Sequence record: DRR723986_5155
Length of the DNA stretch: 23,997 nt
Reading direction: 5' to 3' (one strand)
The translations under genes were made by a program, and so were the position numbers. Numbering within the stretch: the stretch's first letter is position 1; every line of letters begins with the position of its first letter. The notes beneath the pieces are model-generated. The model saw nothing but the letters and a program-made list of their open reading frames with translations. It was not told the origin of the DNA and did no database searches. Below, one piece after another: positions 2-18,108 of this stretch.

Positions 2-2593
2 AAGGACTATGACGCCCGGGGCTTCTTCCAGTGGTTCGATAATTCGGACAAACTGATCGAGACCGCCGCCGCGGACTACGCGAAGATGGTCATGGAGAAC
101 CCGAACGCTACGCTTCTTGCCATGCACCCCACCAACAGTGGCGTCCGCAAGTTCAATGAAAAAGCTCTGGACCTATTGAGGGAGATGGAAGTCGTCAGCC
201 CCGCCAAGGACGATGTGTCAATGGAGGTTATCACACGAGGCGCCGAAGCTCAGACCATGGTCGTTGGTTTCGGAAAGGGGCATCGAATTATTCTTGGCGA
301 GACGCTCGAACTCGACGGCGTTCGTTATGCGAACGGGCAAATCGCAACAATCATGAATGCTTGGCTCGACACAACGGGCGAGCCCTTCTTCGATCTACTC
401 TTCGATGATGGAAAGCGCAGGATCTTCGCGTGGTCCGACTTCATTCGTCATCGCGAGCTGATGCACAAGAAGAAGGTCGAGAACGGCGACAAGGACATCG
501 AACCCTTGCTGCCGAAGCTTCAGCACGCTTTCGCTACGACGGAAACGTCCGCGCAGGGCATGACTGTCGACTACTCCTTCATTCTGGATCCGCAGCACTC
601 GTATGTCGCCGGCACACGCCATCGCTGGGGCGCGTTCTTCTACGGGAACTACGGCGCCGCTCACGACATCCTGATGTCGAAGAAGGGAGGTGCCATCAAG
701 CTCTCCAATGACGGATCCATGGTCAACGAAAACGACGAGACCAATCCGAAGGAGGATCTCGTCATCCGTAAGGGCGAGGGCGGCGTCGAAATCTCCGATG
801 CGGAGGTCAAGGCCGAAGCCTTCAAGATGATGACCCAGCATGGCCCGAAGTGGAATGCCGCCGACTCCTTCCAGTCGCCGAGCGAGTTCCTTGCATTCGC
901 CTACGGCAAACTCAAGGAGAAGGCCAAGCAGGTGACGGAAGCCGTCGGGACCTCCCTAAAGGCGACCATCATCAACGCCTTCAACGAAACACTGGCCTCC
1001 GGCGAGCAGCCGATGCCCGACTTCACGTCGTCGGTCGCGGAAGCCATCGAGGACGTCGAGTTCGACAATGACAACGAGAGTGCACTTGAAAGCGAGGACG
1101 CTGACATGAAAGCTGGACAGCAGAAATCCGGTAAACAGAAGTGGGTCGGCGGGAAGCCTGAGCGCAGGCTCATCACTGAGAGCGAAACGAGGGAATTCGA
1201 ACGCCACAACATGCTCGACTTCGCATTCAATCGCCTCGGAGCCGACTGGAAGTACAAGGGTCGCGAGAAAGGCCGGAAGTCGCCCAAGTGGGGCGGTCAG
1301 GAGTACGAGCTTAAAATCAGCGGGGACAGCGTTGTCGTGAACCATCGCCGGGACGGCACCTGGTCGTTCTGGGTGCGTGGCGACAAGGCCGACGGCAACC
1401 GTCTCTGGAACCTCGCTGCTCGTTACCTCGGCATGTCCAAGATCGAAGCCATGCACGACCTCCGCAAGGAAGTCGGCACCTCGCCGGATCCCGTCGAGAT
1501 GGAGAGAATGGTCGTCGAGGGCAAGTTCAAGGACAGCGGCAAGGTCCCGGCCTTCAAGGAACAGCCGTTGCATGAGCAGCTGGAAGCGGCATGGCTGAAG
1601 GACTACCGAGGCTCGATTGAAGCTTGGGATGCGACGAACGACGAGGAAGTCGCAGACAAGGAGAAGGCGCTCTCCAAGTTCGACCGCGCCGTCCAGAAGT
1701 GGTCCTACCGTGAAAGCGGTATTTCGGACTATCTCCTGGAGCGTGGACTGACGGCGAAAACGCAGAAGCACTTCGCCGGCGACTTCAAGCTCGCGAACAA
1801 GAAGTATGACAAGCTGAAGTCCGATGGAAAAACCGTACCGGGCGAAGTGCTGTTCGGGCTTCGCGACCGGGCGAACAAGATCGTCGGCTATTTCATGAAG
1901 GGCCGCGAAGGCAAGGGCATGGCCTCCGATCTTTCCGGTGGTGCGCCGACCTTCATGGGATACCGTGGCGGCCGCAAGGGAGATAACGGAGAACGCGTCT
2001 CGCCGTCACACATCATCCTTGTCGAAGCCCACATTGACGGCATGTCCTACTGGCAACATATCGGCTCCCCGGAGAACGCCCTGATTATCTCTTCAACGGG
2101 TCAGGTTGGTGAGCAGACCCAGGCGGCGGCTTACATGTACGCGAAGCATTGCCCGAGTGCGGAGATTCACATCGCACCGGATTCGGACGAAGCCGGATAT
2201 AGCTTCTTCCTGAAATACCTGGATGCCGTCGAAGCTGGTCGGCAGCAGGCTATCTCCGAAGGCTACAAAGGCCCGGTTGGCGACATCATCGACGCTCGTG
2301 CAGGTCTCGAATGGAACGACTGGAACAACCGCATTCGTGGCATCAAGTCCATCGACGACTGGAGGCCGCCTGTCGAAGGTGACGAGGGCTTCAACCCGCG
2401 TCGCGATGTCGAATTCGATGGTCCGATCCCGAAAGCGCCAGAACCCATTATCGTTCTGGAAGGTAGACCGGAACCGGATGTGCCCGCCGAAAAGCCGAGG
2501 AGAAAACCGAATTTCCGTGGCGCAATGCAACGGCGCAAGAAGCCGCAAGGGGACAGGGAGCCGACTGGCTTTGGGCCGCGTCTCGTTCCTTAA
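2..2593 (+). CDS. traA: 5'-truncated TraA-like conjugative relaxase/helicase (C-terminal SF1B helicase motifs) fused to a DUF3991/Toprim primase-like domain
   Basis: The frame is open from base 2 (KDYDARGFF...). HAFATTETSAQGMTVD...YVAGTRHR resembles the TraA helicase motifs V/VI (HGYAxTxHKxQGxTVD...YVAxxRHR). The C-terminus has YLLERGL, ILVEAHIDGMSY, IAPDSDEAG and NDWNN, typical Toprim motifs. The relaxase domain itself would lie outside the window. Confidence 0.75.
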   Translation, partial: KDYDARGFFQWFDNSDKLIETAAADYAKMVMENPNATLLAMHPTNSGVRKFNEKALDLLREMEVVSPAKDDVSMEVITRGAEAQTMVVGFGKGHRIILGETLELDGVRYANGQIATIMNAWLDTTGEPFFDLLFDDGKRRIFAWSDFIRHRELMHKKKVENGDKDIEPLLPKLQHAFATTETSAQGMTVDYSFILDPQHSYVAGTRHRWGAFFYGNYGAAHDILMSKKGGAIKLSNDGSMVNENDETNPKEDLVIRKGEGGVEISDAEVKAEAFKMMTQHGPKWNAADSFQSPSEFLAFAYGKLKEKAKQVTEAVGTSLKATIINAFNETLASGEQPMPDFTSSVAEAIEDVEFDNDNESALESEDADMKAGQQKSGKQKWVGGKPERRLITESETREFERHNMLDFAFNRLGADWKYKGREKGRKSPKWGGQEYELKISGDSVVVNHRRDGTWSFWVRGDKADGNRLWNLAARYLGMSKIEAMHDLRKEVGTSPDPVEMERMVVEGKFKDSGKVPAFKEQPLHEQLEAAWLKDYRGSIEAWDATNDEEVADKEKALSKFDRAVQKWSYRESGISDYLLERGLTAKTQKHFAGDFKLANKKYDKLKSDGKTVPGEVLFGLRDRANKIVGYFMKGREGKGMASDLSGGAPTFMGYRGGRKGDNGERVSPSHIILVEAHIDGMSYWQHIGSPENALIISSTGQVGEQTQAAAYMYAKHCPSAEIHIAPDSDEAGYSFFLKYLDAVEAGRQQAISEGYKGPVGDIIDARAGLEWNDWNNRIRGIKSIDDWRPPVEGDEGFNPRRDVEFDGPIPKAPEPIIVLEGRPEPDVPAEKPRRKPNFRGAMQRRKKPQGDREPTGFGPRLVP

Positions 2594-2603
2594 TCTCACC
2601 AGG

Positions 2604-2639
2604 ATACGGTCGTCGGGAGTTTCAACTCGACGACCGTAT
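2604..2639. terminator. Inverted repeat between convergent genes, probably a bidirectional terminator
   Basis: Perfect 12-bp arms ATACGGTCGTCG (2604-2615) and CGACGACCGTAT (2628-2639), between the stop codons at 2593 and 2646. Confidence 0.6.
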
Positions 2640-2645
2640 TGATGT

Positions 2646-3617
2646 TTACGAACCCCGCTTGAATTCTTCAAGTAGATCCAACGGCTTCGGGTTCAGGTCG
2701 GCCATGTCCTCCATTCCGAACCTAATCCGCATTCCGACAAGCGTATTCCCGTCACGGGTGAAAGCGTTCCTATGTCCGACTTCGTTCAACCAGGCAATCA
2801 CGAGGTCAAGATTTCGAGGACTGAAAAAGTCGTCTCTTCCATCATAGACTTCAAACACATGTCGCAAGGCTTCTGCCTTCCGCTCGAAATCGCGCCTCAG
2901 ACGGGCCATCCGATCAGTTGGTATCCCTTCGGACTTTCCGATAATGGCGCGGTATTTCTCAGCAGCCTTGAGCGCAGCGTCAATTGTCGGAGTGAATGCG
3001 TCCGGCTCCAGAAACCCTCCGCCGGCGAGCCGCCCCATCGGTCGGGTTTCCATTTTCCATTTCTCGCCATCGTTCGGCTTCATGGTTTCAGCGGCATAAT
3101 CCCGAACCCGAACATCAATCGAAAGCACGCCGTCCGAGACCCTCATTGCCGCAAACAGCTTCGCATGGATAGCTCCGTACGATGTCTCGAACGTGCGCCG
3201 CAGAGCATCAAATTTGTCGATCTTCCAAGCCCATGAGTTCACTGCTCGGATAAACGGTCTCAAAACCTGCTCGGCACGGGCCAGCATTGTCAATTCATAC
3301 TGACGGTCTCGCTTGCCTTCCATGATCGCCATGGCTTCGTTCCATGACGCGCCATAAGCTTCAGCCCCGCAGGTTGATCCGAGCAACACCCGGTTCATGG
3401 AGGCCAACAAGGCTGTGAATCCATCCCGATGGTTGGTTCGCCCGCAATGCGCGCAACGGACCTTCGTCTTAGGGTAGTCCTTGTGCCGATAGACGTTGAT
3501 GATGGAAAGGAGGGCAACGCCCTCCGGGATGTGGTGAATTATGTTCGGTTGATCCAAAGCGTCGCTCAGAACCAGGTTTTGCTTGAGGAGTTCCTCGTCC
3601 GAAAATTTGCCTGCCAA
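2646..3617 (-). CDS. Hypothetical protein with an N-terminal putative zinc-binding motif
   Basis: 323-aa ORF with RCAHCGRTNH...LGSTCG (CxxC-x4-H...C), followed by a helical, charged region. Confidence 0.7.
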   Translation of the reverse strand: MAGKFSDEELLKQNLVLSDALDQPNIIHHIPEGVALLSIINVYRHKDYPKTKVRCAHCGRTNHRDGFTALLASMNRVLLGSTCGAEAYGASWNEAMAIMEGKRDRQYELTMLARAEQVLRPFIRAVNSWAWKIDKFDALRRTFETSYGAIHAKLFAAMRVSDGVLSIDVRVRDYAAETMKPNDGEKWKMETRPMGRLAGGGFLEPDAFTPTIDAALKAAEKYRAIIGKSEGIPTDRMARLRRDFERKAEALRHVFEVYDGRDDFFSPRNLDLVIAWLNEVGHRNAFTRDGNTLVGMRIRFGMEDMADLNPKPLDLLEEFKRGS

Positions 3618-4051
3618 GAGTCCGCATCTCCGACTGCATTCCGTAACTGGAGATGCAACTTACCCGATTCGAGTGGGTTGTGGTATTGATGTGAACGGAT
3701 CATGAGCAAGTTTCTGAAAGAAATGAGCGTTGAAGTGATCGATATACTTGCGAAATTAATTCTAGCAAAGCCCCGGAATATTTTGAGCCAGTCATAGAAT
3801 GATGCTCCGGCTGTTCTCGGAAAACTCGACATTGCTCTCGAAATAGCTCTTGTGAACCCCGCCGTCGTCGTACTGTAAAATCTCAGCGGCAGCAAATTTG
3901 TTCAGGTTCTTAAGTGGCAGACCGCTAACGGTTTGGAGCTCGACTTCCGCGATCCCAAAGGGCGACAGAGCTTTCTTCGAATTCAGAAATCGGTAGCTTC
4001 CGGAAAAATACGATTGGTCAGCGGCCTGCCTGTTTAGCGGATCCGATGCAG

Positions 4052-4504
4052 CTATTTGCCAGCAAACTGCTTGTATTTCTTTGTAACTTTGTCGCCCTTG
4101 GAAAGTTTCTTGATTTCTCCATCATAGTAGCCGTCGGTCCGGCCTGTGTTGCCTTCCCAGTGCGTGAGATATTTCTTGCCTGACTTGTACCACGTCCAGC
4201 AGTCGTTGGCCTTGCCGCCTTCCTTCTTATCGATAGTGTTCCAACTCATGCTCGCACAGAGTTTGTTGCCTTTGACGGTCCATCTGCCGTCGCCATACCA
4301 CTTCTGGTTTTTCCCGATGATCAGGTAAGTCCCGTCGGCCGCAAAGAACGCGTTGCTGTTCTTCCAGCTCGTGGAATTGCCCTTGTAAAGAGCTGACAGT
4401 TCCGTCGCGGTCAGCGGGACTGCGCTCTTGGGAAGCTTGTCTGCGATGGCAAATTGAGTTGAAACCAGTAGCGCTACAGCAGCTGGCAAAAGTATCTTGT
4501 TCAT
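4052..4504 (-). CDS. Secreted basic DUF995-like protein
   Basis: GGAGG RBS and a signal peptide (MNKILLPAAVALLVSTQFAIA). PLTATELSALYKG and GDGRWTVKGNKLC motifs with two Cys resemble rhizobial DUF995 proteins. Confidence 0.75.
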   Translation of the reverse strand: MNKILLPAAVALLVSTQFAIADKLPKSAVPLTATELSALYKGNSTSWKNSNAFFAADGTYLIIGKNQKWYGDGRWTVKGNKLCASMSWNTIDKKEGGKANDCWTWYKSGKKYLTHWEGNTGRTDGYYDGEIKKLSKGDKVTKKYKQFAGK

Positions 4505-4559
4505 GTTTCGCCTCCAGTTCTAGATGGAGGAAAAGCAAACCAAGCTCTTGCTGCTCGGA

Positions 4560-4579
4560 CACCCCCTAATTGAGGGGAG
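4560..4579. promoter_or_regulatory. Palindromic operator box 1 (CACCCCCTAATTGAGGGGAG)
   Basis: Copy of the repeated CACCCC-N8-GGGGTG motif, 55 bp upstream of the ATG at 4504 (minus strand). Confidence 0.7.
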
Positions 4580-4711
4580 CGTGATAATATCCTCAGGAAC
4601 TGACCAAGTTCGGCAATATTCGGACGCTTTATTTGAATGACTATCCCGTTCGCTCAGGGATGCACCACATTTTGTGAAAAGATGCGGCATAACGCTCCGC
4701 GTAACCGGTTC

Positions 4712-4830
4712 GTGACTGCTCCCCGTCCTGAAGGACGGGGCTTCTTGCTTCGACGGCCGCGGCTATTCTCCCGGCGGAGGTGGACTCACGCATGTCTCAG
4801 CGGCACATACGACGTAACCTGCCCCACGGA
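4712..4830 (-). mobile_element. IS200/IS605-family right end / TnpB omegaRNA scaffold without tnpB (non-autonomous remnant)
   Basis: The minus strand reads CCGTGGGGCAGG...GTCGAAGCAAGAAG-CCCCGTCC-TTCA-GGACGGGG-AGCAG-TCAC. This matches the GAAGCAxGAA, subterminal hairpin (4721-4740) and TCAC-terminus layout of tnpB 3' ends. The left boundary is approximate. Confidence 0.7.
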
Positions 4831-4857
4831 TCTATTGACCCGGTCATCGGTCGCGGT

Positions 4858-4877
4858 CACCCCTCAATTGAGGGGTG
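4858..4877. promoter_or_regulatory. Palindromic operator box 2 (CACCCCTCAATTGAGGGGTG, perfect palindrome)
   Basis: Perfect 20-bp palindrome, 54 bp upstream of the RTX gene ATG at 4932. Confidence 0.75.
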
Positions 4878-4931
4878 TTTCCTTCTGAACGTCGGCGGAT
4901 CATCTAACCGATGCTGATCTGGGAGGTTGTC

Positions 4932-7709
4932 ATGGCAATTGTTATTAAGGGACGCAAACACGATTACATTCACACAGCCAATCGCAACGATATCATATTT
5001 GCAGGCGGCGGCAACGACACGATCTATTCGGAAGGTGGCAACGATCTGATCTACGCCGGGAGAGGCGACGACATCATCAATGCCGGATCCGGCGATGATC
5101 TGGTGTTTGGAGGCGCTGGCAATGATTTCATCACCGGAGGAGCTGGCGCTGATGTCGTCTTTGCCGGAAGGGGCAACGACACAGCGGTGTTCGTTGCAGC
5201 GGACAATGCAGATAACGAAGGTCGTGGAGACTATTACGATGGCGGCCGCGGCTGCGATACGCTCCGCATCGAATTGACATCTGACATGTGGTCTCAGGAT
5301 GCCGTAAAGTCAGACATGCTCGCCTTTCTGGAGCATCTGGCGACATTCGGATCAGGCGAGGAGTTCAGGTTTTCGAGCGTAAACCTGTGTGTGAAGCGCT
5401 TCGAGAAGTTGGAAGTCTTCGTCGACGGCCAAAAGGTCGATCTGTTTGTAACCGATCCTGACGACGGGCCGCTCGTGATCGACAGATCGTCCTCAACCGT
5501 GGACGAAACCATTACCACCATCGGCGATGGCGACACTGATATCCGGACCGGATCCGGAAACGATACGATCACGGCGGGCAATGGCAACAACGTCATCGGC
5601 GCGGGTGACGGAAACAACAAGGTCACGACCGGGACTGGAGCCGACATTATCACCACCGGCTCCGGAGACGATGTGATCGACAGCGGTGACGGGAACGATA
5701 CGATCTACATCGGCGACGGTGACGATGTTGTGCGCGCTGGCGGGGGCAACGACACCATTATCGCCGGCAACGGCGGAGGCGTTGACCTGATCGACGCTGG
5801 AAGCGGCAACGATCTTGTCACCTATCCTTCTGATGTGGACGGGATTTCGGTCGACCTTAATGAAAGCGACAGGTCGTTGGTGGCACTTGGCAACGGAATG
5901 ACCGTAGGTGACCTGCTGTCACAGAACGGTTACGCCGCCAATACACCCGTTGCTATTGCACAAGGTATTTCCATTGACACTGACGTGTTGATCAGCGTCG
6001 AGAACATCACCGGCGGCGGTGGTAACGACACGATCATGGGCAACGAGTTGGCCAATCGGCTCATAGGCGAGGGAGGCGATGATACCCTCTTTGGCAACGA
6101 CGGAGATGACGATCTCCGAGGCGGATCCGGAAATGACACATTGAACGGTGGTGGTGGTGACGATCTGCTTGAAGGCAGCACCGGACTTGATGTTCTCGAC
6201 GGAGGAGGAGGCCACGACACCATTATCCTGCGCGGTCCGGACACCGATTACAGCATCACGAACAACGGTGACGGCAGTTACACGTTGACCGACAATGGTG
6301 GCAATGGTGATGGTGTTGACATCATCTCGAACATCGAGAGGTTGGTCTTCTCTAACGTCACCCGGGATTTCTGGGAGTTGGTTCCCACCAACTTCGTTTA
6401 CGGGACGCCTGGCGATGACAAACCGCTCAACGGAACTCCCGCCTTCGATGACATCCAAGGCTATGCCGGCGATGACGACATCTTCGGATACTCGGGTGAG
6501 GACTGGATCACAGGCGGACAGGGAAACGACTACATCGACGCCGGATCCGGCACGACCGATGACGACAACTTCCTCTGGGATACGATCGCCTACGACCGTG
6601 AAGTGGATGAAGGCGGTTTCCAGGGAGTTACGGTCAATCTGGCGCTGCAAACCGCGACCGATACGTTCGGCAACACCGACACGCTCATAGAGTTCGAACG
6701 GGTGATGGCAACGAACTTCGCAGACTCCATCACCGGATCGGATGCCGATGAAGGCTTTGACCCGCACGGCGGCGACGATTTTATCGATGGTGGCGCGGGC
6801 TATGACCAGCTCATGTATCACCTTTCATACACTCTGGGTGGTACAGGCGGAATTATCGTAACGTTCGACGACAGCACGGCAAACACGGGAGATGGAACGG
6901 CCATCGATCCGTTCGGAGACACGGATACCTTTACCAACATCGAAGGCATTCGCGGAACTGCCAACGCTGACCAGGTCTATGGCGGACAAGGCCACCAAAC
7001 GTTGAGGGGGTACGACGGCGCCGATATATTCGATGGCGGCGGCGGGTATGACCGGGCCGACTACAGTCAGGACTCTGCATACGGTGGTACCGCTGGCATA
7101 CATGTTGATCTTGAGAACACTGATGCCAGTGGATTTGGACTGGTAATTGACGGGTTTGGCTCGCAAGACCGCTTGTTGAACGTCGAATGGATTCGAGGCA
7201 CGGGATCCGCGGACGAAATGTGGGGCGATGCTAATGCGAACGAGTTCGAGGGTCGAGCCGGTGACGATGAACTTCACGGACGAGCCGGGGATGATTTGCT
7301 CTTCGGAGGTCTCGGCAACGATGCCCTTCACGGGGATGACGGCCTCGATACGCTGGAGGGCGACAATGGTGACGACGTGCTCATGGGTGGCGCCGATGAC
7401 GATCATCTCGACGGCGGCAGCGGCGAAGACACCCTGGATGGAGGCACAGGCAACGACTTCATGATCGGTGGTCTGGACGCGGATCGTTTCCATTTCAGCG
7501 CCGGGAGCGGCAACGATACGATCGGGGATTTCGAACTTGGCGTCGACGGTCTCGTGCTTGAGGGCGGTATGACTATCGCAAGTCTGTCCGAAGTGAACGT
7601 GGGCGGAGATGCCTCTCTCGACACCATTGTCGAGTTTTCGTCGGGCGACCAGGTCGTGCTGCTTGATGTCAACGGTGTCGCCGACCCCAGTCAGCTTCAG
7701 ATCGTGTGA
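4932..7709 (+). CDS. RTX (hemolysin-type) Ca2+-binding repeat protein, T1SS substrate
   Basis: Dozens of GGxGxDxLx nonapeptides, very acidic, no signal peptide, and a C-terminal D.F.F...SGNDTIGDF T1SS signal. It lies directly upstream of the T1SS genes. The start was moved to 4932 because of the GGGAGG RBS. Confidence 0.92.
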   Translation: MAIVIKGRKHDYIHTANRNDIIFAGGGNDTIYSEGGNDLIYAGRGDDIINAGSGDDLVFGGAGNDFITGGAGADVVFAGRGNDTAVFVAADNADNEGRGDYYDGGRGCDTLRIELTSDMWSQDAVKSDMLAFLEHLATFGSGEEFRFSSVNLCVKRFEKLEVFVDGQKVDLFVTDPDDGPLVIDRSSSTVDETITTIGDGDTDIRTGSGNDTITAGNGNNVIGAGDGNNKVTTGTGADIITTGSGDDVIDSGDGNDTIYIGDGDDVVRAGGGNDTIIAGNGGGVDLIDAGSGNDLVTYPSDVDGISVDLNESDRSLVALGNGMTVGDLLSQNGYAANTPVAIAQGISIDTDVLISVENITGGGGNDTIMGNELANRLIGEGGDDTLFGNDGDDDLRGGSGNDTLNGGGGDDLLEGSTGLDVLDGGGGHDTIILRGPDTDYSITNNGDGSYTLTDNGGNGDGVDIISNIERLVFSNVTRDFWELVPTNFVYGTPGDDKPLNGTPAFDDIQGYAGDDDIFGYSGEDWITGGQGNDYIDAGSGTTDDDNFLWDTIAYDREVDEGGFQGVTVNLALQTATDTFGNTDTLIEFERVMATNFADSITGSDADEGFDPHGGDDFIDGGAGYDQLMYHLSYTLGGTGGIIVTFDDSTANTGDGTAIDPFGDTDTFTNIEGIRGTANADQVYGGQGHQTLRGYDGADIFDGGGGYDRADYSQDSAYGGTAGIHVDLENTDASGFGLVIDGFGSQDRLLNVEWIRGTGSADEMWGDANANEFEGRAGDDELHGRAGDDLLFGGLGNDALHGDDGLDTLEGDNGDDVLMGGADDDHLDGGSGEDTLDGGTGNDFMIGGLDADRFHFSAGSGNDTIGDFELGVDGLVLEGGMTIASLSEVNVGGDASLDTIVEFSSGDQVVLLDVNGVADPSQLQIV

Positions 7710-7713
7710 GGTT

Positions 7714-7756
7714 GCACATCCGGGCTTGCGCTGGAACGGCGCAAGCCCGGATGTGC
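7714..7756 (+). terminator. Intercistronic 18-bp stem-loop (attenuator or mRNA stabiliser)
   Basis: GCACATCCGGGCTTGCGC, a 7-nt loop, then GCGCAAGCCCGGATGTGC, starting 5 nt after the RTX stop. There is no U-tract. Confidence 0.65.
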
Positions 7757-7791
7757 CCTGACGTTCACATCAAGCATGAGAACCTCCTGCC

Positions 7792-9549
7792 ATGATCTCG
7801 GATCATCCCTTTCGACTGGCAATTGGCCGATACCGTTCCGCCTTGTTGCTGGCGGTGTTTTTCAGCTTCTTCACGAACCTGCTTCTGTTCGTGGGGCCGC
7901 TCTACATGCTGCAAATCTATGATCGCGTGTTACAGAGCCGGAACGAGACCACGCTGCTTATGCTGACGATGATCGCTGGGGGTCTTCTTGCTCTTTACAG
8001 CGTTCTGGATTTTATCCGATCACGGATGCTGGTGCGTGCTGGAATGCGCTTCGACACGGAGCTCGCCCCGTGTCTCTTCAGGCGTGTCGTCGACAGGGCG
8101 CCTCTCATGTCTCAGGCTCAAAGCCGTCCGTTTCTATCGGACATTGATCGGCTGCGCGATTTCCTGACAGGCACAAGCGTGCTTACTTTCTGCGACGCTC
8201 CCTGGATTCCGATCTTTCTTGTAATTTGTTTTCTGTTTCATCCATTGCTCGGCATCGTCGCGACCTGCGGTGCCGCAATTCTGTTTTTCCTGGCACTTCT
8301 GAACGAGTTGGCAACCCGCAGCCCCTTGCGGGTTGCCTCGCTAGCCGTGCAGGACACGGGCAACTATGCAGACGGTGTGCTGGTCAACGCCGAGGTGGTC
8401 CAGGCCCTGGGAATGGAGACCGCCGTTTTGGGACGTTGGCTCGATCAACGACATCGTTTGCTCGACAGATTGACGGTCGCAAGCGACCGCAGTGGGATCA
8501 TTCTTTCTCTTTCCAGATTCCTGCGCATGGCTCTCCAGGTCGCAATTCTCGGTGCGGGAGCATGGCTCGTACTTAGGGACGAGATTACCCCCGGCGTCAT
8601 GATCGCGGCCTCGATCATGATGGGGCGCGCTGTTGCTCCGGTCGAACAGTCAGTTGCACACTGGAAATCCTTTGTCGCCGCCCGACTTGCGCATCGTCGG
8701 TTAAAAGGCCTTTTCGCCGAAGTTCCGGAACGGCGCAAACGAATGGCGCTGCCACGTCCGGAGGGAAGAATTACGGTTGAAGGATTGGTGGGGCGGATTC
8801 CGGACGGCGAAACGACGATATTGGCCGGCATCAACTTCGCTCTCGAGCCGGGTGACGTCTGCGCGATTATCGGTCCCAGCGGAGCGGGCAAGTCCAGCCT
8901 TGTTCGCCATTTGATTGGGGTTTGGCGGCCGAGGGCAGGGCACGTCCGATTCGACGGTGCGGATCTCCATCACTGGGACCGCGAACGTTTGGGTTGCCTG
9001 CTTGGGTATGTGCCTCAGGATGTCGAGTTGTTCGAAGGCACGATCGCCGAAAACATTGCCCGTTTTGGCGAGCAATCTGCGGAGAGGGTTGTAGAGGCTG
9101 CGCAACAAGCCGGAGTGCACGATCTAATCCAGTCGTTTACGGACGGCTACGACACCCAAATCGGTGAGGGGGGGCGTCATTTGTCGGCCGGACAGCGCCA
9201 GCGGGTTGCCCTTGCTCGCGCCCTTTACGCCTCCCCGATTTTCCTCGTGCTCGACGAACCGAACTCCAACCTGGACAGCGAGGGCGACGCGGCGCTAATC
9301 GCAGCGATCCGCCAGGCCAAGGAGCGTGGACAGACGGTTGTCTTCGTTACGCACAAGCCGAACCTGTTGGCTCTTGCCGACAAGGCGCTGGTCCTCAATG
9401 TGGGGCGGCAACAGGGTTTCGGTCCCGCGTCGGAATTGATGGCACCCACGGTCGCCCGAAGCGCCGAACGGAGTGTTGGAACGACAGCCGAGGGTGTGCC
9501 GGTATCTGGCGACAGGCGCGTGGCGGCTCCGACGCCGCAGGCATCCTGA
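7792..9549 (+). CDS. prtD: Type I secretion system permease/ATPase (PrtD/AprD family)
   Basis: PLYMLQIYDRVL in the N-terminal transmembrane domain, Walker A GPSGAGKS, signature LSAGQRQR, Walker B LVLDEPNSNLD and H-loop VTHK. Confidence 0.93.
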   Translation: MISDHPFRLAIGRYRSALLLAVFFSFFTNLLLFVGPLYMLQIYDRVLQSRNETTLLMLTMIAGGLLALYSVLDFIRSRMLVRAGMRFDTELAPCLFRRVVDRAPLMSQAQSRPFLSDIDRLRDFLTGTSVLTFCDAPWIPIFLVICFLFHPLLGIVATCGAAILFFLALLNELATRSPLRVASLAVQDTGNYADGVLVNAEVVQALGMETAVLGRWLDQRHRLLDRLTVASDRSGIILSLSRFLRMALQVAILGAGAWLVLRDEITPGVMIAASIMMGRAVAPVEQSVAHWKSFVAARLAHRRLKGLFAEVPERRKRMALPRPEGRITVEGLVGRIPDGETTILAGINFALEPGDVCAIIGPSGAGKSSLVRHLIGVWRPRAGHVRFDGADLHHWDRERLGCLLGYVPQDVELFEGTIAENIARFGEQSAERVVEAAQQAGVHDLIQSFTDGYDTQIGEGGRHLSAGQRQRVALARALYASPIFLVLDEPNSNLDSEGDAALIAAIRQAKERGQTVVFVTHKPNLLALADKALVLNVGRQQGFGPASELMAPTVARSAERSVGTTAEGVPVSGDRRVAAPTPQAS

Positions 9550-9590
9550 TGTTGCGTCGGGAGAGTGGTTCACAGGTGGGAGGTCGAGAC

Positions 9591-10892
9591 ATGACAGGTA
9601 ACAGGCTGAGGACATACTCGCCGACTCCGTTCGCGATCGGTGGCCTAGCTACCATCGTGCTCTCGTTCGGCGTTGCCGGTGGATGGGCTCTAACGGCACC
9701 GCTTGCGAGCGCGGTCGTGGCGCCCGCCTCGGTGGCGGTCGAAGGAAACCGCAAGGTTATCCAGCATCTGGAAGGAGGGATCATTGAGCGCATCCGGGTC
9801 AAGGAAGCGCAACTGGTGAACGAAGGCGAAGTGCTCGTGGAACTCAAGACCGTTGAGGCGATCGCCAATCTGGAAATATTGCGGAAACGCCTGCTGATCG
9901 CACGGGCAATGGAAGCGCGGTTGGTCGCGGAACAGAAGGAAGCCGGTGACATTCTGTTTCCGGAGGCTGTGGTCAGGGAGGGGGAACCCTCCCTTGTCGC
10001 TGCTGTCCAGGGACAAAGGGATCTGTTCGAGGATAGATTGCTGGTGTTGGCCAACCAACGCGACATCCTTACTCGTCGCATTGGGCAAATCGACCGACAG
10101 AGCCAGGGGCTGGAAGAGAGATATTCGGCACTCGAACTCCAGATGGTTCACATGGGTAGGGAAATCGAACGGCTGCGGGAGGGCAAGGAGCTTGGAGCCG
10201 TCGGCTTGAACCGACTGGCGGCCATGGAACGCGAAGGGGCGCGCCTCACCGGGGAGATCGGCGCCACCAAGGCCGAAATTGCGCGTGTAGAACAGATGAG
10301 GGCGGAGACCGAACTCGAGATCATCCAGCTTGGACACCAGTTTCGCGAGCGTGCCGTTTCCGAATTGAAGGATGTTCGGGACGAGATTACCCAGATCGAG
10401 GAACGTGTCGCCGTCGCGGCGGACGTCTTGAGCCGCACCGAGGTTCGTGCACCGATCAACGGCATAGTCCAAAATCTCGGTGTGCATACCATCGGGGGAA
10501 TCGTCCGGCCGGGCGACCCGATCATGGAGATCGTGCCCGTCAACGACAACCTCGTCATCAATGCCCGTGTCAGAGCCATCGACATTGACAACCTGGTTCC
10601 AGGAATGATGGCCGAGGTGCGCTTCCCGGCGTTCCCTCAACGAGAGATGCCGCTTGTTTCAGGGCAGGTGGAGTTCCTGTCGGCCGACATCATCATTCCG
10701 GAGGCAGGTGAGGAGCCGTTTTATCTGGCGCGGGTTATTGTCCTTGAAGGCACCATCGATGAGGAAAGGCGGCAGCAACTATCCCCCGGCATGCCGGCCG
10801 AAGTGATTATTCCGACCCAGGAACGCACCGTGGCGCAATATCTGATTGAGCCGCTGTCGCAAGCCATTCGCTCAAGCATGCGTGAAAACTGA
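9591..10892 (+). CDS. prtE: Type I secretion membrane fusion protein (HlyD/PrtE family)
   Basis: Single N-terminal TM segment, KVIQHLEGGII, a coiled coil, VRAPINGIV and LSPGMPAEV...T.ERTVAQYL..PL. A GGAGG RBS precedes ATG 9591; an alternative start at 9549 overlaps the prtD stop. Confidence 0.92.
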   Translation: MTGNRLRTYSPTPFAIGGLATIVLSFGVAGGWALTAPLASAVVAPASVAVEGNRKVIQHLEGGIIERIRVKEAQLVNEGEVLVELKTVEAIANLEILRKRLLIARAMEARLVAEQKEAGDILFPEAVVREGEPSLVAAVQGQRDLFEDRLLVLANQRDILTRRIGQIDRQSQGLEERYSALELQMVHMGREIERLREGKELGAVGLNRLAAMEREGARLTGEIGATKAEIARVEQMRAETELEIIQLGHQFRERAVSELKDVRDEITQIEERVAVAADVLSRTEVRAPINGIVQNLGVHTIGGIVRPGDPIMEIVPVNDNLVINARVRAIDIDNLVPGMMAEVRFPAFPQREMPLVSGQVEFLSADIIIPEAGEEPFYLARVIVLEGTIDEERRQQLSPGMPAEVIIPTQERTVAQYLIEPLSQAIRSSMREN

Positions 10893-10986
10893 CGGCTTCC
10901 CGTGGCCTGCCGTTTGCGATTATTGCAATAACATCTTGGCGTATGAATTTGGTCCGCAACCGAATTCGGTCGAAATGGATTTCTTG

Positions 10987-11535
10987 TCACCCTGGGAGAC
11001 GAAACAGGATCTGCCTGCCTTGAGCCACTGTGATCTTGTCGTCGCCGAACCGCCAGCCGGAGGCATATCGCCATTCGTCGTCCGTCCTCGACAGCAAGGC
11101 GATCCACGATTTGATCTTCCGGTAGTGCTCGGCGATCTCCTCGATGTCCCTGTCCATCAGCTCCCGGTCGACGCCGATGAAGTCTCGCACTCCCACGAGG
11201 TCAAATTCCTCGTAAGTCGGTATTCCGGATGAAATCACGTGCAGTCGGTCTTTCATCTCGCTGTCGGACAATTTGCCTATGCAATAGTATTCTTCCCGCC
11301 AGCGGTCATAGGTCTTCAGGAAATAGTCCGGATACCGCTTCACCATGTAGTTGGCGATTTCGCGGCACAGGACTTTCAGCTATCGAAAGCTGTGCCCGGC
11401 AATGCTCTCGTCCGTGGCCAACTTGAAAGCTTGGAATTCACCGCTCACCGATTAAAAGAAGCGGCGGAATACGAAGATTGCACCGACCAGGCCGACGACA
11501 ACGCCGATGACGAAGCCAAACACCACGTTCGTCAA
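10987..11535 (-). pseudogene. Interrupted gene for a membrane-anchored hypothetical protein
   Basis: One frame from TTG 11535 reads LTNVVFGFVIGVVVGLVGAIFVFRRFF* SVSGEFQAF...HSFR* LKVLCREIANYMVKRYPDYF..., with in-frame stops at 11452-11454 (TAA) and 11380-11382 (TAG). It continues as the 119-aa ORF ending at 10987. Confidence 0.55.
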
Positions 11536-12671
11536 ACTTCACGCGCCGCAGGAAATCTGTTGCAAAGAGCTATCAATTCACCTTGCCTGTGAGTTTGTGT
11601 CTTATCAAAGATAATCTTCAATGTACTCCTCACTGTACTTTCGGTGTTTCCGAGAGCTTCAGCCGTCTGTTGTATTGACTTGCCTGAGACTATCAGTTCG
11701 CAAAGCCGTTTCTCCGAAGGGGTGAACCGATAGTGCCGTGAAAGCAGCTCAACATCTGGAGTGGTATGACGAGGGAACTCAGAAATTCTTAATGCGAAAA
11801 GTTGGCTATACAAAAATATGCTGGATACAGCCGAGATGTTTACTGGAAACAATTCGAATAGCTTATCAAATTTACCAAAGCGAAATACTGATCGCCATTC
11901 GCGTTTTTGAGAACTTTTCCTTTGGTATGCGACTTCGGTTTCAAGCCAACTGTTCGCATTTCCATGGTTCAGTGAGAGTTTGCCCATATTAGTGGTAACG
12001 ACGGTTTCACTAATAAGGTTTCGAGCTTGAGAATTGCAGTCGTAAACTTTCCTCGCAGAATCTATGACGAATACTGGATCTCTATTGGATTTACACAGCT
12101 GTTCCAATGAACCTGCACGGTATGCTTCGGAAAACAACTGCTCAGCTTGGATGCCACGCATGAGATCCGATTTCGCTCGGGTGAGGACATAAGCCAATGC
12201 ATCGTCGTAAAGTTCACACTGGTTTAGATTGAAGTGAATCGGTATGTGCAAAAGTATATCGTTCGAATCACAAAGTTTTATTCCGACAGAAGCTTCTGCA
12301 TTTTTGAGAGGACGAATCCAATCTTCATAAAATTCCATTCCACGAAACTGATTTGCAGGACTGTGATACTCCGAAACGCGTATTGACCCATTTGGTAGCC
12401 CCTTCCAGACGTCCACCCAAGGGTTCACCTGCGCATAATGACTCGAATAGGAAGCGATTGCTCCAGGATCAATATCGCCGGACCACAAAAGCGCCGAATT
12501 CGGCTCATGCCTTCGTTGGATCAATATGGCACCGAAGCTCCCAGGGAAGTTTGAAACTAGGAAGTCTAATGCATTTTGCCAGTCCAGCGTTCCACTAAAT
12601 TTTTCGATCGCAAGTAAACTGCAAAAGTCTTCTGAAAGCGTCTCGAGTTGTTTTTGATCATGAAAGTTCAT
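11532..12671 (-). CDS. LuxR-family HTH transcriptional regulator with an N-terminal GAF/PAS-like sensor region (no adjacent luxI)
   Basis: C-terminal FTPSEKRLCELIVSGKSIQQTAEALGNTESTVRSTLKIIFDKTQTHRQGELIAL is a LuxR/CsgD-type HTH. The N-terminus has Y..HY...NPW and FYEDWIRP, and the middle has a PAS-like VFVIDS. GGGAG RBS precedes ATG 12671. The gene is AT-richer than its flanks. Confidence 0.88.
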   Translation of the reverse strand: MNFHDQKQLETLSEDFCSLLAIEKFSGTLDWQNALDFLVSNFPGSFGAILIQRRHEPNSALLWSGDIDPGAIASYSSHYAQVNPWVDVWKGLPNGSIRVSEYHSPANQFRGMEFYEDWIRPLKNAEASVGIKLCDSNDILLHIPIHFNLNQCELYDDALAYVLTRAKSDLMRGIQAEQLFSEAYRAGSLEQLCKSNRDPVFVIDSARKVYDCNSQARNLISETVVTTNMGKLSLNHGNANSWLETEVAYQRKSSQKREWRSVFRFGKFDKLFELFPVNISAVSSIFLYSQLFALRISEFPRHTTPDVELLSRHYRFTPSEKRLCELIVSGKSIQQTAEALGNTESTVRSTLKIIFDKTQTHRQGELIALCNRFPAAREV

Positions 12672-12798
12672 CTGGCCACTCCCACTCTCAATTTGCTCTA
12701 AGTGTTGATCACTGTCAGACACACTTTGAACAAAATTGGAGCTTGCTACAACTAATAAGAGCGACGACGAAGCTTTTCTGTTGTCTTCCGGTTCTGAG

Positions 12799-12818
12799 CG
12801 CCCCCCATTTGTGGGGTG
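12799..12818. promoter_or_regulatory. Palindromic operator box 3 (CGCCCCCCATTTGTGGGGTG)
   Basis: Lies in the divergent intergenic region between luxR and the lyase gene, 68 bp upstream of ATG 12887. Confidence 0.65.
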
Positions 12819-12886
12819 CATACGCTCTGCAATTATGGACAACCTTGATGCTGTTCTGGACAAAAAAGCGGAGCTGGGGTGGGGCC

Positions 12887-14089
12887 ATGAACGCATCGAG
12901 ATTAAGCAGGCTGTCGGCTATTTTGCTGTTATTTGTGAACACCATTGATGCCTCACTAGCGAATTCCAGGGTTTCGTTAGATAGCGATATCGCAACTGGC
13001 TGGGGGCAGGGAACTGTTTGGCTGAAGTCCATGGAGAATGGATACAAAACCTACGGCCATTCGATCGTTGCCCGTGACGACAACTTCCCTGTGCGTCTTG
13101 GTGATAAGTCTATTCGATTTGAGGTACGGTCAGGAGATTGTGGATTTCACGCTAGTTGGAGTGATTGCAAAAACGATCGCGAGCGACACGAACTAAGCCA
13201 AATTAAAGAATTGCAGGTTTCAGGAAACGAATACTGGTTTGCATGGTCACTCTATATACCGTCCACGACTCCTCGTATTGATCCGATTTCAACGCATCTA
13301 GGACAGTTTCAACAAGTCGGCGCCAACGTAGTCTTTTTGTTTTCATGGAATCAAATCGGCTATGTCATTGACAACCAGGCCCCAGGAGACGGGACTACAA
13401 AGCAAATTCAAAAACTCGTAGACCATCAGCAACTAACTGACCGTTGGGTGGATATCTTGGTGAATGTTAGGTGGTCTGAAAAGGAAAATGGATACATAAA
13501 AGTCTACGCAAATCACATCAAGAAATATGAATTCATTGGTGCAAACTTAGTCCGAGGCGGCAAAGGACACTACAAATTTGGTGCTTATCGTAGTCATATC
13601 ACTAGATACAAGAAAGCTAATTCAGTCGAAGAACTGCCAACCCAAGTTGTGTTCTTTGATGAAGTACATCGTGGGAAAACACTGGCAAGCGTTGATAAGG
13701 TGGGCTTGGTAGCCCTGCAAGAGGCGGCCGCCGCAGCCGGATTCTATGAAGGGAATACTGACGGCGTTTGGGGTCCAAACACTCTGAAGGCAACTAATCG
13801 ATTGCTTGCAGAGAAGGGATTACCTGCTGTTCTTGAGTATTCCATGGATGTGTGGGACGGATTAAACAAACCGGATATTCCGCCGATGCGTCAACCAAAT
13901 TTTGACGGACATTTCATTGCCTTGCGGGCGGCGCTCGCAAACGGAAACACCGAGCTCGTCAGCGACTGGCAGACCTTCCTTTACAGTGTCGGACTTTTTC
14001 GAGGCGAGGCTGACGGCATCTACTCCGCCGAACTCGAGGAAGCGTTGATCGAGTGTGTAGTGGCGAAAATGTGTACGTTTTCAAAGTGA
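12887..14089 (+). CDS. Secreted polysaccharide-lyase-fold (Polysacc_lyase / heparin lyase I-like) protein with C-terminal peptidoglycan-binding-like repeats
   Basis: Signal peptide from MNASR. Lyase-fold motifs RFEVRSGD, RERHEL, EYWFAWSLYIP, GQFQQ, W.D....V.WS, YKFGAYR and FFDEV. C-terminal LQ..L/A...GFY.G..DGVWGP.T and GLFRGEADGIYS resemble PG_binding_1. Confidence 0.78.
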   Translation: MNASRLSRLSAILLLFVNTIDASLANSRVSLDSDIATGWGQGTVWLKSMENGYKTYGHSIVARDDNFPVRLGDKSIRFEVRSGDCGFHASWSDCKNDRERHELSQIKELQVSGNEYWFAWSLYIPSTTPRIDPISTHLGQFQQVGANVVFLFSWNQIGYVIDNQAPGDGTTKQIQKLVDHQQLTDRWVDILVNVRWSEKENGYIKVYANHIKKYEFIGANLVRGGKGHYKFGAYRSHITRYKKANSVEELPTQVVFFDEVHRGKTLASVDKVGLVALQEAAAAAGFYEGNTDGVWGPNTLKATNRLLAEKGLPAVLEYSMDVWDGLNKPDIPPMRQPNFDGHFIALRAALANGNTELVSDWQTFLYSVGLFRGEADGIYSAELEEALIECVVAKMCTFSK

Positions 14090-14140
14090 TATGGATCTGC
14101 GTGCATTTACGATGGGCTAGTTCTTCAACCATTCGTATGT

Positions 14141-14160
14141 CACCCCCTGTTTGAGGGGTG
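14141..14160. promoter_or_regulatory. Palindromic operator box 4 (CACCCCCTGTTTGAGGGGTG)
   Basis: Perfect 6-bp arms, 61 bp upstream of ATG 14222. A CTATAT -10-like hexamer lies at 14195-14200. Confidence 0.72.
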
Positions 14161-14221
14161 TGTGGGCTCAGTTCAAATCCGAACATCCATAGGTCTATAT
14201 TGCTAGTGCGTGGAGGACGTT

Positions 14222-14548
14222 ATGAATAAGATTTGCCTAGTGATTAGTGTCGGCTTCATTGTCGCTTCGTCGTCGGTGCCGAGCATCGCAGATCAAGCCG
14301 CCATTAACGAGGTGATCGGAAGTACCTGGAGCTTCGAACAAGGCAAAGCCAAAGGAACTATTCATTACGGAAAAAGCACCGTAGAGGCAAAAATGAACGG
14401 CAAGACGTACAAGGGGAGTTTGCGGGTATCGGGTAACAAAATCTGCACCAAGTATTCTGAGCTTCGTGATGGCAAGGAATCTTGCTTCGGAGTCAGTAAG
14501 ACCAAAGGTGGTTACAAAACCACCAATGGTGGGCGGCTGTGGAAGTAG
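14222..14548 (+). CDS. Small secreted basic protein, distantly similar to the 4052-4504 product
   Basis: GGAGG RBS and a signal peptide. G.LRVSGNKIC...C parallels GRWTVKGNKLC...C; Lys-rich. Confidence 0.75.
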   Translation: MNKICLVISVGFIVASSSVPSIADQAAINEVIGSTWSFEQGKAKGTIHYGKSTVEAKMNGKTYKGSLRVSGNKICTKYSELRDGKESCFGVSKTKGGYKTTNGGRLWK

Positions 14549-14850
14549 AGGAGCGACGTCCCAACTTGGTTGGATGTCGACCACCTTCCAACAGTTATTA
14601 ACTGCCGAGCAGATAGTGACCTTCAGAGAATTTCGATCTGATGGCCACCGTCGACTGGGGAATGATCTGATGCGGTGGACGCCTCCATTGCTTTTGTTCC
14701 TGCGAAACCACGTTGGCACAATCGATGCCGTTAGGAGGTAGCATCCGCCGCATCAGTTCTCTGTCCAACCTTATATGATGGGTGGGTTCAAGGAGAAGTC
14801 AAACGCACCATATCCGCCAACTTTGATGAGCTTCAGTTGGAACAAAACGA

Positions 14851-15525
14851 ATGGAGACGAACCGATCATTTCTGAACACGATCGCCGTTGCGACAAAAGC
14901 TGCGGGATCTAGATCCCTCGTGACAGTCGCAATCGTGTGTTCGGCCCTATTTATTTCAACGCGTAGTGAAGCTGTTACGATCCTAGTTGAAGACAACAAT
15001 CTATTTTTGAGCGGGTCAATTGCGGAATGGAGCCCTGAACTGTTTTCAATCAAGCTGGCGGAAACTCTTCTTGGGTTACAACGTGAAGGCGACACGGAAA
15101 GTTTCGTCAGCCTTCACCTTGATCTTCCAGAAGGAGGGCTCGCTTCTTCTTCGTTTGAGTTGGTGAACTTAATGAGAGTTGCCCAAGCTCACGGAACGAA
15201 GTTTTCTGCTCACGTGGCCGCTGATGCCACTTGCATGTCAGGTTGTGTTTTTTTGTTCCTAGCTGCTGATGAAAGGTGGATTGCACCTGAAGGCAAACTC
15301 ATTTTTCATGGATTCAGCAGTCGTAACGGTGAAAATCATCCGAGAGTGCCCGCGGAGTACATTCAATCGTATTATGGCTTACTTAAATTGGCCAACGAAC
15401 AGTTCTATGAATTTTTCAGGGCTTCCAGAATCATTGAAGAGAACAAAATGGTTGGTTTCACCGGCAAAACGCTTTTTGAACAGGAGGTGTTTTCTGGGTT
15501 GATCACGGGATTGGTTGAAGAGTGA
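14851..15525 (+). CDS. Exported ClpP/crotonase-like (COG3904-type) protein
   Basis: Hydrophobic N-terminus, LDLPEGG (variant of L.SPGG), CMSGCVFLFLAADER and LIFHG. Confidence 0.7.
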   Translation: METNRSFLNTIAVATKAAGSRSLVTVAIVCSALFISTRSEAVTILVEDNNLFLSGSIAEWSPELFSIKLAETLLGLQREGDTESFVSLHLDLPEGGLASSSFELVNLMRVAQAHGTKFSAHVAADATCMSGCVFLFLAADERWIAPEGKLIFHGFSSRNGENHPRVPAEYIQSYYGLLKLANEQFYEFFRASRIIEENKMVGFTGKTLFEQEVFSGLITGLVEE

Positions 15526-15600
15526 TGGGGCGCTCTTTTCGCAGGTAGAAGGGGAGAATAGCACACGGCTGGATACTTCGGCCTGTGCGAGACTGCCGTC

Positions 15601-16749: not shown

Positions 16750-16917
16750 TGCCACCGCACCACCGTTGTTATCGCTACCGCCTCTCAGCCTACGGTAGCA
16801 AATTGTCACCGCTCCGAAAATCTCCGTTTCCGGGAGTTATGCCGGTCGGTTTCGGGACTTGAGCTTCCGCCGGCATCATTATCGATCCGAGTGCAATTAT
16901 TCGGAGAACGAAAACAA

Positions 16918-17061: not shown

Positions 17062-17181
17062 GCGACAATTTCTGAACTTGTTAGGGATACCTAAGTTGAC
17101 CGGAGTGGGGCCAAAAGTGGCCTGGCAGCCTCTAGATTTTACATAGCGATAGCTGCCGTTCAGAAAGCGGCATCGAAGTCT

Positions 17182-18048: not shown

Positions 18049-18108
18049 GGGCGACTACCCATGAAGTCGATCATGCTCTCGTTCCGTTGATTCGATTATT
18101 CGTCATTT

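Follow-up and report, generated by a model that had tools for sequence, protein, structure and literature searches.

A repeated palindrome as the predicted operator of a three-domain LuxR-type regulator and of neighbouring exported-protein genes on a conjugative element

The lux and tra boxes are promoter-proximal palindromes of ca. 18–20 bp, and the quorum-sensing LuxR receptors (TraR, LasR, CviR, CepR2) that belong to this type of system combine an N-terminal ligand domain with a helix-turn-helix (HTH) of the GerE type. VqmA (PAS plus LuxR-type HTH, sensing 3,5-dimethylpyrazin-2-ol, DPO) and EL222 (LOV plus LuxR-type HTH) are one-component sensors that also carry a GerE HTH and respond to cues other than N-acyl homoserine lactones (AHLs). 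The PAS-LuxR regulators of Streptomyces (PimM, PteF) are described in PMC9774167 as recognizing a 16-bp palindrome, CTVGGGAWWTCCCBAG, located in the −35 regions of several promoters within a single gene cluster. Here we deal with a stretch of 23,997 nucleotides from sequence record DRR723986_5155 (the window, by which we mean the whole stretch analysed), in which a palindrome of the form CACCCC-N8-GGGGTG is repeated around the gene of a regulator of 379 amino acids (aa). The family of this regulator is large and alphaproteobacterial, and its members have three domains, one GAF/autoinducer-receptor-like, one PAS and one GerE/LuxR HTH. We consider it likely that the palindrome is the operator of the adjacent regulator and controls a local regulon of exported-protein genes on a conjugative element. 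An operator with a small exported-protein regulon had been proposed in an initial annotation made from the DNA letters, and the comparison of genomes supports this prediction well. As a mechanism this is nothing unusual; what is new is the three-domain family, its predicted operator, the partnership with DUF995 and other exported proteins, and the expansion into a mobile regulon with several promoters.

The regulator resembles the quorum-sensing LuxR receptors in the modelled fold of its N-terminal domain, in the GerE-type HTH and in having as its putative target a promoter-proximal palindrome of ca. 20 bp. However, it has an extra PAS domain and a helix of 45 residues, is ca. 140 residues longer, and its predicted operator is unrelated in sequence. 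The autoinducer-binding family Autoind_bind (PF03472) was matched by none of 63 members of the regulator family (the members hit 23 families at E ≤ 0.01, and this one is missing from them), a profile search of the PDB sequences matched no autoinducer-receptor ligand domain, and Pfam detected neither a LuxI-type nor any other regulator domain among the 18 open reading frames (ORFs) of the window that were scanned. That the window encodes no AHL synthase had already been noted in the initial annotation. By its sequence the regulator is not a quorum-sensing LuxR receptor (“LuxR solo” in the strict sense). A non-AHL ligand is plausible, given that the sequence matches no AHL receptor and that the window has no LuxI gene, yet the N-terminal fold resembles that of AHL receptors.

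VqmA and EL222 were among the Foldseek matches of the regulator (7dwm_A, E 1e-5; 6ide_A, E 6.3e-5; 8a5r, E 1.1e-4), but they have two domains and ca. 210–240 residues, the regulator adding a GAF-like domain at the N-terminus, and a profile search detected no sequence relationship to them beyond the HTH. With the Streptomyces PAS-LuxR proteins it shares the PAS and LuxR HTH domains and, judging from the operator as given in PMC9774167, arms made of G/C tracts around an AWWT centre. The polarity of the arms is reversed, GGG-AWWT-CCC in Streptomyces versus CCC-AWWT-GGG here, and those proteins are actinomycete regulators of ca. 200 aa with two domains that act on polyketide biosynthesis, whereas the present one has three domains, 379 aa and exported proteins as putative targets. 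We have discarded membership of the Streptomyces type on account of this architecture and of the Streptomyces-type core GGGAWWTCCC, which never occurs near the regulator (see the controls below). Full-length homologues, with 22–30% identity over 89–98% coverage, are encoded on plasmids of Agrobacterium, Sinorhizobium, Shinella and Sphingobium, and their annotations go no further than “helix-turn-helix transcriptional regulator,” “LuxR family” or “hypothetical protein.” Those from Shinella and the Agrobacterium pAt plasmids share the DUF995 partner and a CCCAWWTGGG box; in the plasmid homologues the arms of the box are 2 bp closer and there is one box per locus versus four or five in the window. 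Judged mostly by titles and abstracts, none of the papers searched deals with the regulator family, with its operator or with DUF995 proteins of bacteria; a single paper with the term DUF995 was found and concerns rice, and the listed matches to the motif strings look, by title, like primers or unrelated uses.

A pattern scan of the window located the four intergenic copies of CACCCC-N8-GGGGTG that the initial annotation had described, with 1, 0, 1 and 0 mismatches in order of position, and the recomputed distances to the start codons were the same. A degenerate fifth copy had been missed. The sites are:

4560..4579, box 1, CACCCCCTAATTGAGGGGAG, 55 bp upstream of the start of the DUF995 gene (4504, minus strand)
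4858..4877, box 2, CACCCCTCAATTGAGGGGTG, a perfect 20-bp palindrome, 54 bp upstream of the start codon of the RTX gene (4932)
12799..12818, box 3, CGCCCCCCATTTGTGGGGTG, 68 bp upstream of the start of the lyase gene (12887)
14141..14160, box 4, CACCCCCTGTTTGAGGGGTG, 61 bp upstream of the start of the small-protein gene (14222)
14765..14784, box 5, degenerate, CCAACCTTATATGATGGGTG, 66 bp upstream of the start of a 224-aa gene (14851)

Box 3 lies also 127 bp upstream of the start of the divergently oriented regulator gene (12671). With a position weight matrix (PWM) built from the first four sites, these score 24.5–30.4 bits and box 5 only 11.0 bits. Allowing up to two mismatches the window contains five matches, of which the fifth (at 17667) is intragenic and looks like chance; among 100 shuffled windows the mean was 0.98 matches and five were reached in just one. 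The 23,997 bases contain the core CCCC-N8-GGGG exactly four times, always as boxes 1–4, and the 1,542,196 bases of 80 alphaproteobacterial loci contain it 14 times. The zone from 50 to 70 bp upstream of a called start (16 starts, from gene calls made in this analysis) takes up 331 of 23,978 window positions (1.4%), so that the probability of finding all four boxes within it by chance would be ca. 4e-8. In other words, the motif stands upstream of several genes at a constrained distance, as the operator of a local regulon does. The sole promoter-like site near any of the boxes is of sigma-70 type, TTCAAA-18-TATATT at 14172–14201, just 3′ of box 4; no conserved −10 element was seen by eye in the aligned regions downstream of the four boxes.

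The long ORF of the regulator (454 aa) had no Pfam match, and the alignment of its homologues sets the start at 12671, giving the protein of 379 aa. Its AlphaFold2 model (mean predicted local distance difference test, pLDDT, 92.1; predicted template modelling score, pTM, 0.77) consists of an alpha/beta N-terminal domain (residues ca. 1–148), the helix of 45 residues (149–194), a PAS-like domain (200–298) and a four-helix HTH (307–371). Residues 2–180 superpose on the ligand domains of CepR2 (Z 13.2, root-mean-square deviation (rmsd) 3.0 Å over 159 residues), CviR (Z 12.0), VqsR (ca. 12) and LasR (Z 11.9), a range of 11.9–13.2 that differs little from the Z of ca. 11 obtained with generic GAF domains. 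The best structural match of the middle domain is the PAS domain of TraJ (Z 11.3), and the C-terminal domain superposes on the HTHs of VraR and DosR (Z 11.2 and 10.9, rmsd 1.6 and 1.5 Å, 64–65 residues). Along similar lines, the profile of the 63 family members matches GerE (1fse, E 8.2e-7), VpsT and NarL at positions 303–377 and a PAS sensor at positions 189–281, and 20 of the 63 members match the GerE family PF00196 on their own (best E 2.9e-7). Profile and model both point to a transcription factor of the GerE/LuxR HTH superfamily, and they bear out the initial description of the domains as GAF/PAS-LuxR. The family comprises 611 cluster representatives at E ≤ 1e-10 and is alphaproteobacterial. 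Close relatives of the regulator itself are rare (three proteins in a search of 5.8 billion sequences), and there were none in the viral contigs.

The association between motif and regulator was analysed in 80 loci around distant homologues (20–34% identity, 1.54 Mb in total). A PWM scan of such neighbourhoods had been suggested in the initial annotation, and with the window PWM the best matches lay mostly less than 1 kb upstream of the regulator gene, with ORFs for putative exported proteins recurring after the boxes. The box of the wider family reads approximately CAC(Y)CCC-AWWT-GGG(R)GTG, its arms being 6 bp apart versus 8 bp in the window subfamily, and the recognition helix is R-S-T/A-L-K in the subfamily with N8 boxes versus R-x-R/K-L/I-K in the family with the shorter box. 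The core CCCAWWTGGG occurs 21 times in 1,595,698 bases, and 15 of the 21 sites fall from −300 to +1260 relative to the start of the regulator, shortly before the gene or shortly past its stop, an interval that amounts to ca. 7.5% of the sequence. Loci L036 and L116 are the same sequence, which leaves 14 of 20 independent sites. The six outliers are in L035 (+2616), in L049 (+3737), at three orthologous sites at ca. −5370 and in L111. The control patterns GGGTWWACCC, GGGAWWTCCC and CCCTWWAGGG gave 0, 4 (none near the regulator) and 0 occurrences.

At the scale of whole genomes, the 12-mer CCCCAWWTGGGG was found once in each of four genomes (4.9–7.2 Mb), each time beside the regulator gene, and was absent from a fifth, with 0–2 occurrences of the reversed control. 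Perfect copies of the 18-mer CACYCCCAWWTGGGRGTG in three further genomes appeared only beside regulator homologues, while five extra sites with two mismatches in those genomes had no regulator within 1.5 kb. In the genomes of these relatives the motif is single-copy and adjoins the regulator, unlike a dispersed genome-wide repeat, the possibility raised in the initial annotation. Since the patterns had been defined post hoc, 13 plasmid loci were fetched afterwards as a test set. The core was present in 7 of the 13, and in 7 of the 8 with at least 26% identity, for ca. 0.2 matches expected in the first 56 kb of plasmid loci (our own estimate from the background rate). Motif and regulator gene therefore co-occur across genomes. 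There is also a locus, L049 (Mesorhizobium sp. BAC0120), with three boxes of the family type in 4 kb around one regulator homologue (9771, 11259 and 13738), which from its sequence is a second, independent example of a putative mini-regulon with multiple boxes. The plasmid of Rhizobium sp. CB3171 (L144, homologue 24.6% identical) has no CCCAWWTGGG core; two N8-like boxes, CATCCCCTAAATGAGGTATG and GACCCCTCAAATGCGGGATG, were seen there at 2749 and 4140, one of them upstream of an annotated outer membrane protein gene.

The genes that follow the boxes have much in common across these loci. A DUF995 gene adjoins the regulator in L114, L036/L116, L050, L137, L141 and L142, an RTX gene does so in L115 and L038, and in L140 a DUF4214 protein adjoins an HlyD gene. 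An ORF with a signal-peptide- or lipoprotein-like N-terminus starts 50–131 bp after the box in L035, L042, L043, L049 (all three boxes), L051, L062, L063 and L109; in L036 the product of the post-box ORF is a DUF995 lipoprotein and in L038 an RTX protein. Given the recurrence of export-type N-termini after the boxes, the exported-protein theme spans the whole family and goes beyond the window. In Shinella sp. WSC3-e and on two pAt plasmids of Agrobacterium tumefaciens the DUF995 and regulator genes are divergent, and the box is in the interval that separates them (152 bp in Shinella, 128 bp in Agrobacterium). The centre of the box is 64–65 bp away from the start codon of DUF995 in each of the three loci, and its distance to the regulator start codon is 63.5 bp in Agrobacterium and 88.5 bp in Shinella. 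In Pseudorhizobium flavum the box is 62 bp upstream of a gene for a DUF4214 protein, with an HlyD gene nearby. A local DUF995 hidden Markov model (HMM) found only 5 ORFs, the seeds included, and Pfam detected no further DUF995 or RTX among 70 flanking ORFs of the more distant homologues.

The window itself was annotated with Pfam on the 18 ORFs, plus NCBIfam and PHROGs, with the following result for the block and its flanks:

2..2593, plus strand, C-terminal part of a relaxase-helicase-primase fusion (Toprim_2), marking the backbone of a conjugative element
2646–3617, minus strand, ORF of 323 aa, function not assigned
4052..4504, minus strand, DUF995 protein of 150 aa, putative target (Pfam PF06191, E 2e-11)
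4932..7709, plus strand, RTX calcium-binding repeat protein of 925 aa, putative target and putative substrate of the type I secretion system (T1SS) (HemolysinCabind, E 4e-69)
7792..9549, plus strand, T1SS ABC transporter (ABC_tran and ABC_membrane)
9549..10892, plus strand, T1SS membrane-fusion protein of the HlyD family (HlyD_3 and HlyD_D23)
10987–11346, minus strand, ORF of 119 aa between the HlyD gene and the regulator, no Pfam, NCBIfam or PHROGs match
11532..12671, minus strand, regulator of 379 aa (start set by the homologue alignment)
12887..14089, plus strand, exported polysaccharide lyase of 400 aa with a C-terminal PG_binding_1 (peptidoglycan-binding) domain, putative target (PF14099, E 7e-16; PF01471, E 8e-6)
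14222..14548, plus strand, small exported lysine-rich protein of 108 aa, putative target (from the translation)
14851..15525, plus strand, backbone gene of 224 aa, possible fifth target (N-terminal hydrophobic segment; phrog_1827, E 3e-5)
15601–16809, minus strand, NfeD-like protein

The identities that had been given to the genes after the four boxes are the same as ours (DUF995; RTX with the ABC and HlyD genes; lyase with PG_binding_1; a 108-aa protein with a signal-peptide-like N-terminus). Read by eye from the translations, hydrophobic N-termini like those of signal peptides are present in the DUF995, lyase, small and 224-aa proteins. The 108-aa protein is probably a distant relative of DUF995 (hhalign probability 87%, E 4e-6), and the 224-aa protein has weak similarity to ClpP-like proteases in PHROGs. 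The ABC transporter gene is probably co-transcribed with the RTX gene. Four ORFs (10987–11346, 18109–18828, 19454–20719 and 21160–23598) have no function assignable from Pfam, NCBIfam or PHROGs. Portions of four genes (RTX, HlyD, regulator and small protein) are matched by metatranscriptome contigs of run X12 with 0–2 differences, it being understood that contigs from RNA libraries prove neither transcription nor RNA ends and that some runs left parts of the stretch uncovered.

The two closest relatives of the locus are L115 and L114. L115 is a metagenome contig with a regulator 55% identical to that of the window. Its box, CACCCCCCAAATGTGGGGTG, precedes an RTX gene by 61 bp, the full-length identity of this RTX to that of the window being 43%, and is 104 bp from a divergent gene for an exported PG_binding_1 protein. 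In L114 the regulator is 53% identical and the element backbone has ca. 88% nucleotide identity to the window, with positions 2–4585 and 14762–16965 corresponding to L114 15821–11237 and 9865–7665 (87.5% in the region of the relaxase-fusion ORF). The relaxase orthologue there is a fusion of TrwC, AAA_30 (helicase) and Toprim_2 of 1,628 aa (13230–18116). Between the shared segments L114 has the regulator only and the window 10.2 kb, and from this shared backbone with its differing insert the block is recognized as a variable cargo, the conjugative element that carries it having a relaxase of the TrwC type; this supports the “mobile” character proposed for the block. “Self-contained” is correct only in part: the T1SS parts in the window are the ABC transporter and HlyD, with no TolC-like outer-membrane component among the 18 ORFs (the outer-membrane factor may be chromosomal), and a box also precedes a backbone gene. 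A good box in L114 (CCACCCTCATTTGAGGGGTG, 21.3 bits) aligns with the degenerate box 5 of the window; it precedes the orthologue of the 224-aa gene by 62 bp and the regulator gene by 138 bp, a spacing that mirrors the 127 bp between box 3 and the regulator in the window. The minimal unit, to judge from these sequences, is a DUF995 gene, the regulator and a box. A Megablast of positions 4000–15000 against plasmids gave no match.

Variants of the window arrangement were also found in public runs. Contigs of X2 (26 kb) and X3 (40 kb) contain, between 4628 and 4635, an insertion made up of a second copy, 86% identical, of the regulator, of box 3 and of the 5′ part of the lyase gene; this second copy corresponds to window 11537–13135, and the junction of 13135 to 4635 is also present in X1. 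In view of these arrangements, the interval from box 1 to box 2 of the window may be a deletion scar. The regulator paralogues P0003 and P0005 are both listed with a contig of length 12,414.

In the mechanism that we propose, a dimer of the regulator (by analogy with the dimers of GerE-type HTHs) would bind the palindrome, the centre of which, 64–79 bp upstream of the start codons, would be at or just upstream of the −35 element. By responding to some small-molecule or environmental signal, the regulator would control a local set of envelope and extracellular proteins, namely the DUF995 protein, the RTX protein with the T1SS genes, the PG-binding polysaccharide lyase, the small DUF995-like protein and perhaps the ClpP-like exported protein. 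Apparently the ancestral unit was a regulator with one box and one gene for DUF995 or another exported protein, an arrangement present in many genomes, and on the conjugative element this unit would have grown to four or five box-carrying transcription units. A wider picture, which we put forward tentatively and would not yet favour over its negation, is that throughout the family each regulator has a private operator of the form CAC(Y)CCC-AWWT-GGG(R)GTG serving one neighbouring exported protein, often DUF995, and that in the conjugative subfamily the spacing increased by 2 bp along with a change in the recognition helix, followed by growth into a transferable “sense-and-secrete” regulon of four to five promoters through capture of box-carrying genes, including RTX with its own secretion system.

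There are other possible explanations for the boxes. One would be that they are an operator bound by some other DNA-binding protein, of the element or of the host chromosome, with the neighbouring regulator as a bystander or as one more co-regulated target. Several ORFs of the window have no assignable function, and box 3 is 127 bp from the regulator start, so that the regulator could itself be a target. However, the motif tracks the regulator gene across unrelated contexts and genera, being the sole copy, beside that gene, in four whole genomes and recurring in 7 of the 13 plasmid loci fetched separately; no other gene is common to all these loci, and recognition helix and box geometry change together. 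We consider this explanation unlikely. Somewhat less probable still is a role of the palindromes in structure or recombination, for instance as hairpins, repetitive extragenic palindromic (REP)-like repeats, terminators or sites at cassette boundaries. A terminator-like character was flagged for box 2, every “cassette” begins with a box, the homology between window and L114 ends at boxes 1 and 5, and the relatives from public runs join 13135 to 4635, with the extra copy of the regulator just after box 1. Against this, 23 of the 24 listed boxes have no T-run after them (the exception, L109, has an AT-rich flank), the boxes are upstream and not downstream of genes, at a narrow 54–68 bp from the start codons, and the primary sequence (CAC/GTG flanks, C/G arms and AWWT centre) is kept across genera, which a hairpin alone would not need. 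Besides, the motif is single-copy per genome in the relatives rather than dispersed, and chromosomal, non-mobile contexts carry it as well (L036, L038). For these boxes we have discarded intrinsic terminators and REP-like repeats, given the lack of T-runs after 23 of the 24 and the single copies in the genomes of relatives. The breakpoints and rearrangements at the boxes do indicate that shared operators may also serve as points of recombination, although the chromosomal loci with a single box argue for regulation as the primary role.

Even if the regulator does bind the boxes, it might do so as a repressor that silences the secreted-protein genes until a signal releases it. The divergent gaps of 128–152 bp in Agrobacterium and Shinella contain one box, so that both promoters must overlap or abut it, and the start of an RNA contig 9 bp after box 4 is a weak indication in the same direction. 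On the other side, the only promoter-like site near a box (14172–14201) lies entirely 3′ of box 4, so that the box precedes the −35 element; this layout is typical of activators and favours activation, weak as this evidence is. The distances of the boxes to the start codons are also typical of LuxR-type activator sites, to go by the lux and tra boxes. We lean slightly toward activation, and the repressor version as a whole seems to us rather unlikely, although clearly less so than a foreign binding protein.

The reading of the palindrome as the operator of the adjacent regulator has several points against it. The GerE match of the regulator itself (E 0.0085, 16.1 bits) is below the Pfam cut-off of 23.5, and the HTH assignment rests for this reason on the family profile and the model. 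The family box and the window box are related but different sites, as is clear from the arm spacing, and both the CCCAWWTGGG pattern and the near-regulator interval were chosen after the first matches had been seen. The association is not universal either: the core was in none of the 5 plasmid loci below 26% identity (those with the most distant homologues), many loci have no motif, with the relaxed pattern in only 8 of the 22 closest homologue loci by our own count, and of 22 upstream regions searched with a strict palindrome finder (≤1 mismatch, 16–22 bp), just those of L049 and L051 yielded the motif. The DUF995 gene of L114 is 99% identical, yet the box that precedes it has decayed to 12.0 bits; since this box and box 5 of the window are both degraded, individual boxes are dispensable. 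The breakpoints of homology between the window and L114 fall precisely at boxes 1 and 5. Finally, the RNA-library contig mentioned above begins at 14169, which speaks against an activator position only if it is a true 5′ end.

If the predicted operator is real, it would provide the first function, DNA target and target class for these regulators of rhizobia, agrobacteria and marine alphaproteobacteria, and the first regulatory context for DUF995 proteins. The copy on the conjugative element would illustrate how a one-gene circuit becomes a mobile regulon through the spread of a short operator, and the 2-bp difference in operator spacing between subfamilies would be a natural case of an HTH dimer and its operator changing together. 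The system should be easy to test because the operator is short, nearly unique per genome and adjoins the regulator.

Some further features of the window and its relatives may be recorded. A second conserved element, ACAATTATTA(A/G)TTGT, was noticed by eye 76–79 bp upstream of the regulator start in the window (CTTATTAGTTGT, 12748–12759, minus strand), in L114 (9911–9925) and in L115 (9908–9922); it is nearly palindromic in L114 and may be the promoter of the regulator gene itself or another operator. Between boxes 1 and 2 there is a strong terminator-like hairpin, CCCCGTCCTGAAGGACGGGG, with a T-rich tail (4721–4740), at a place with no obvious gene end. A small RNA in this 280-bp gap was considered and dropped, as the fold of 4590–4760 was no better than that of shuffled sequences (z −0.40); for the whole window, an Rfam scan gave 0 families and ARAGORN 0 tRNAs. 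L114 encodes in addition a type IA topoisomerase (5340–7739) and a protein with an AbiJ N-terminal domain (20049–20921). The motif pattern was also met in 33 scattered stretches of viral contigs, which we judged unrelated. One viral contig of 222 kb (L015) has 12 pattern matches within 301–1047, the eight listed positions being 66–67 bp apart; these matches form a tandem or CRISPR-like array that has nothing to do with the window.

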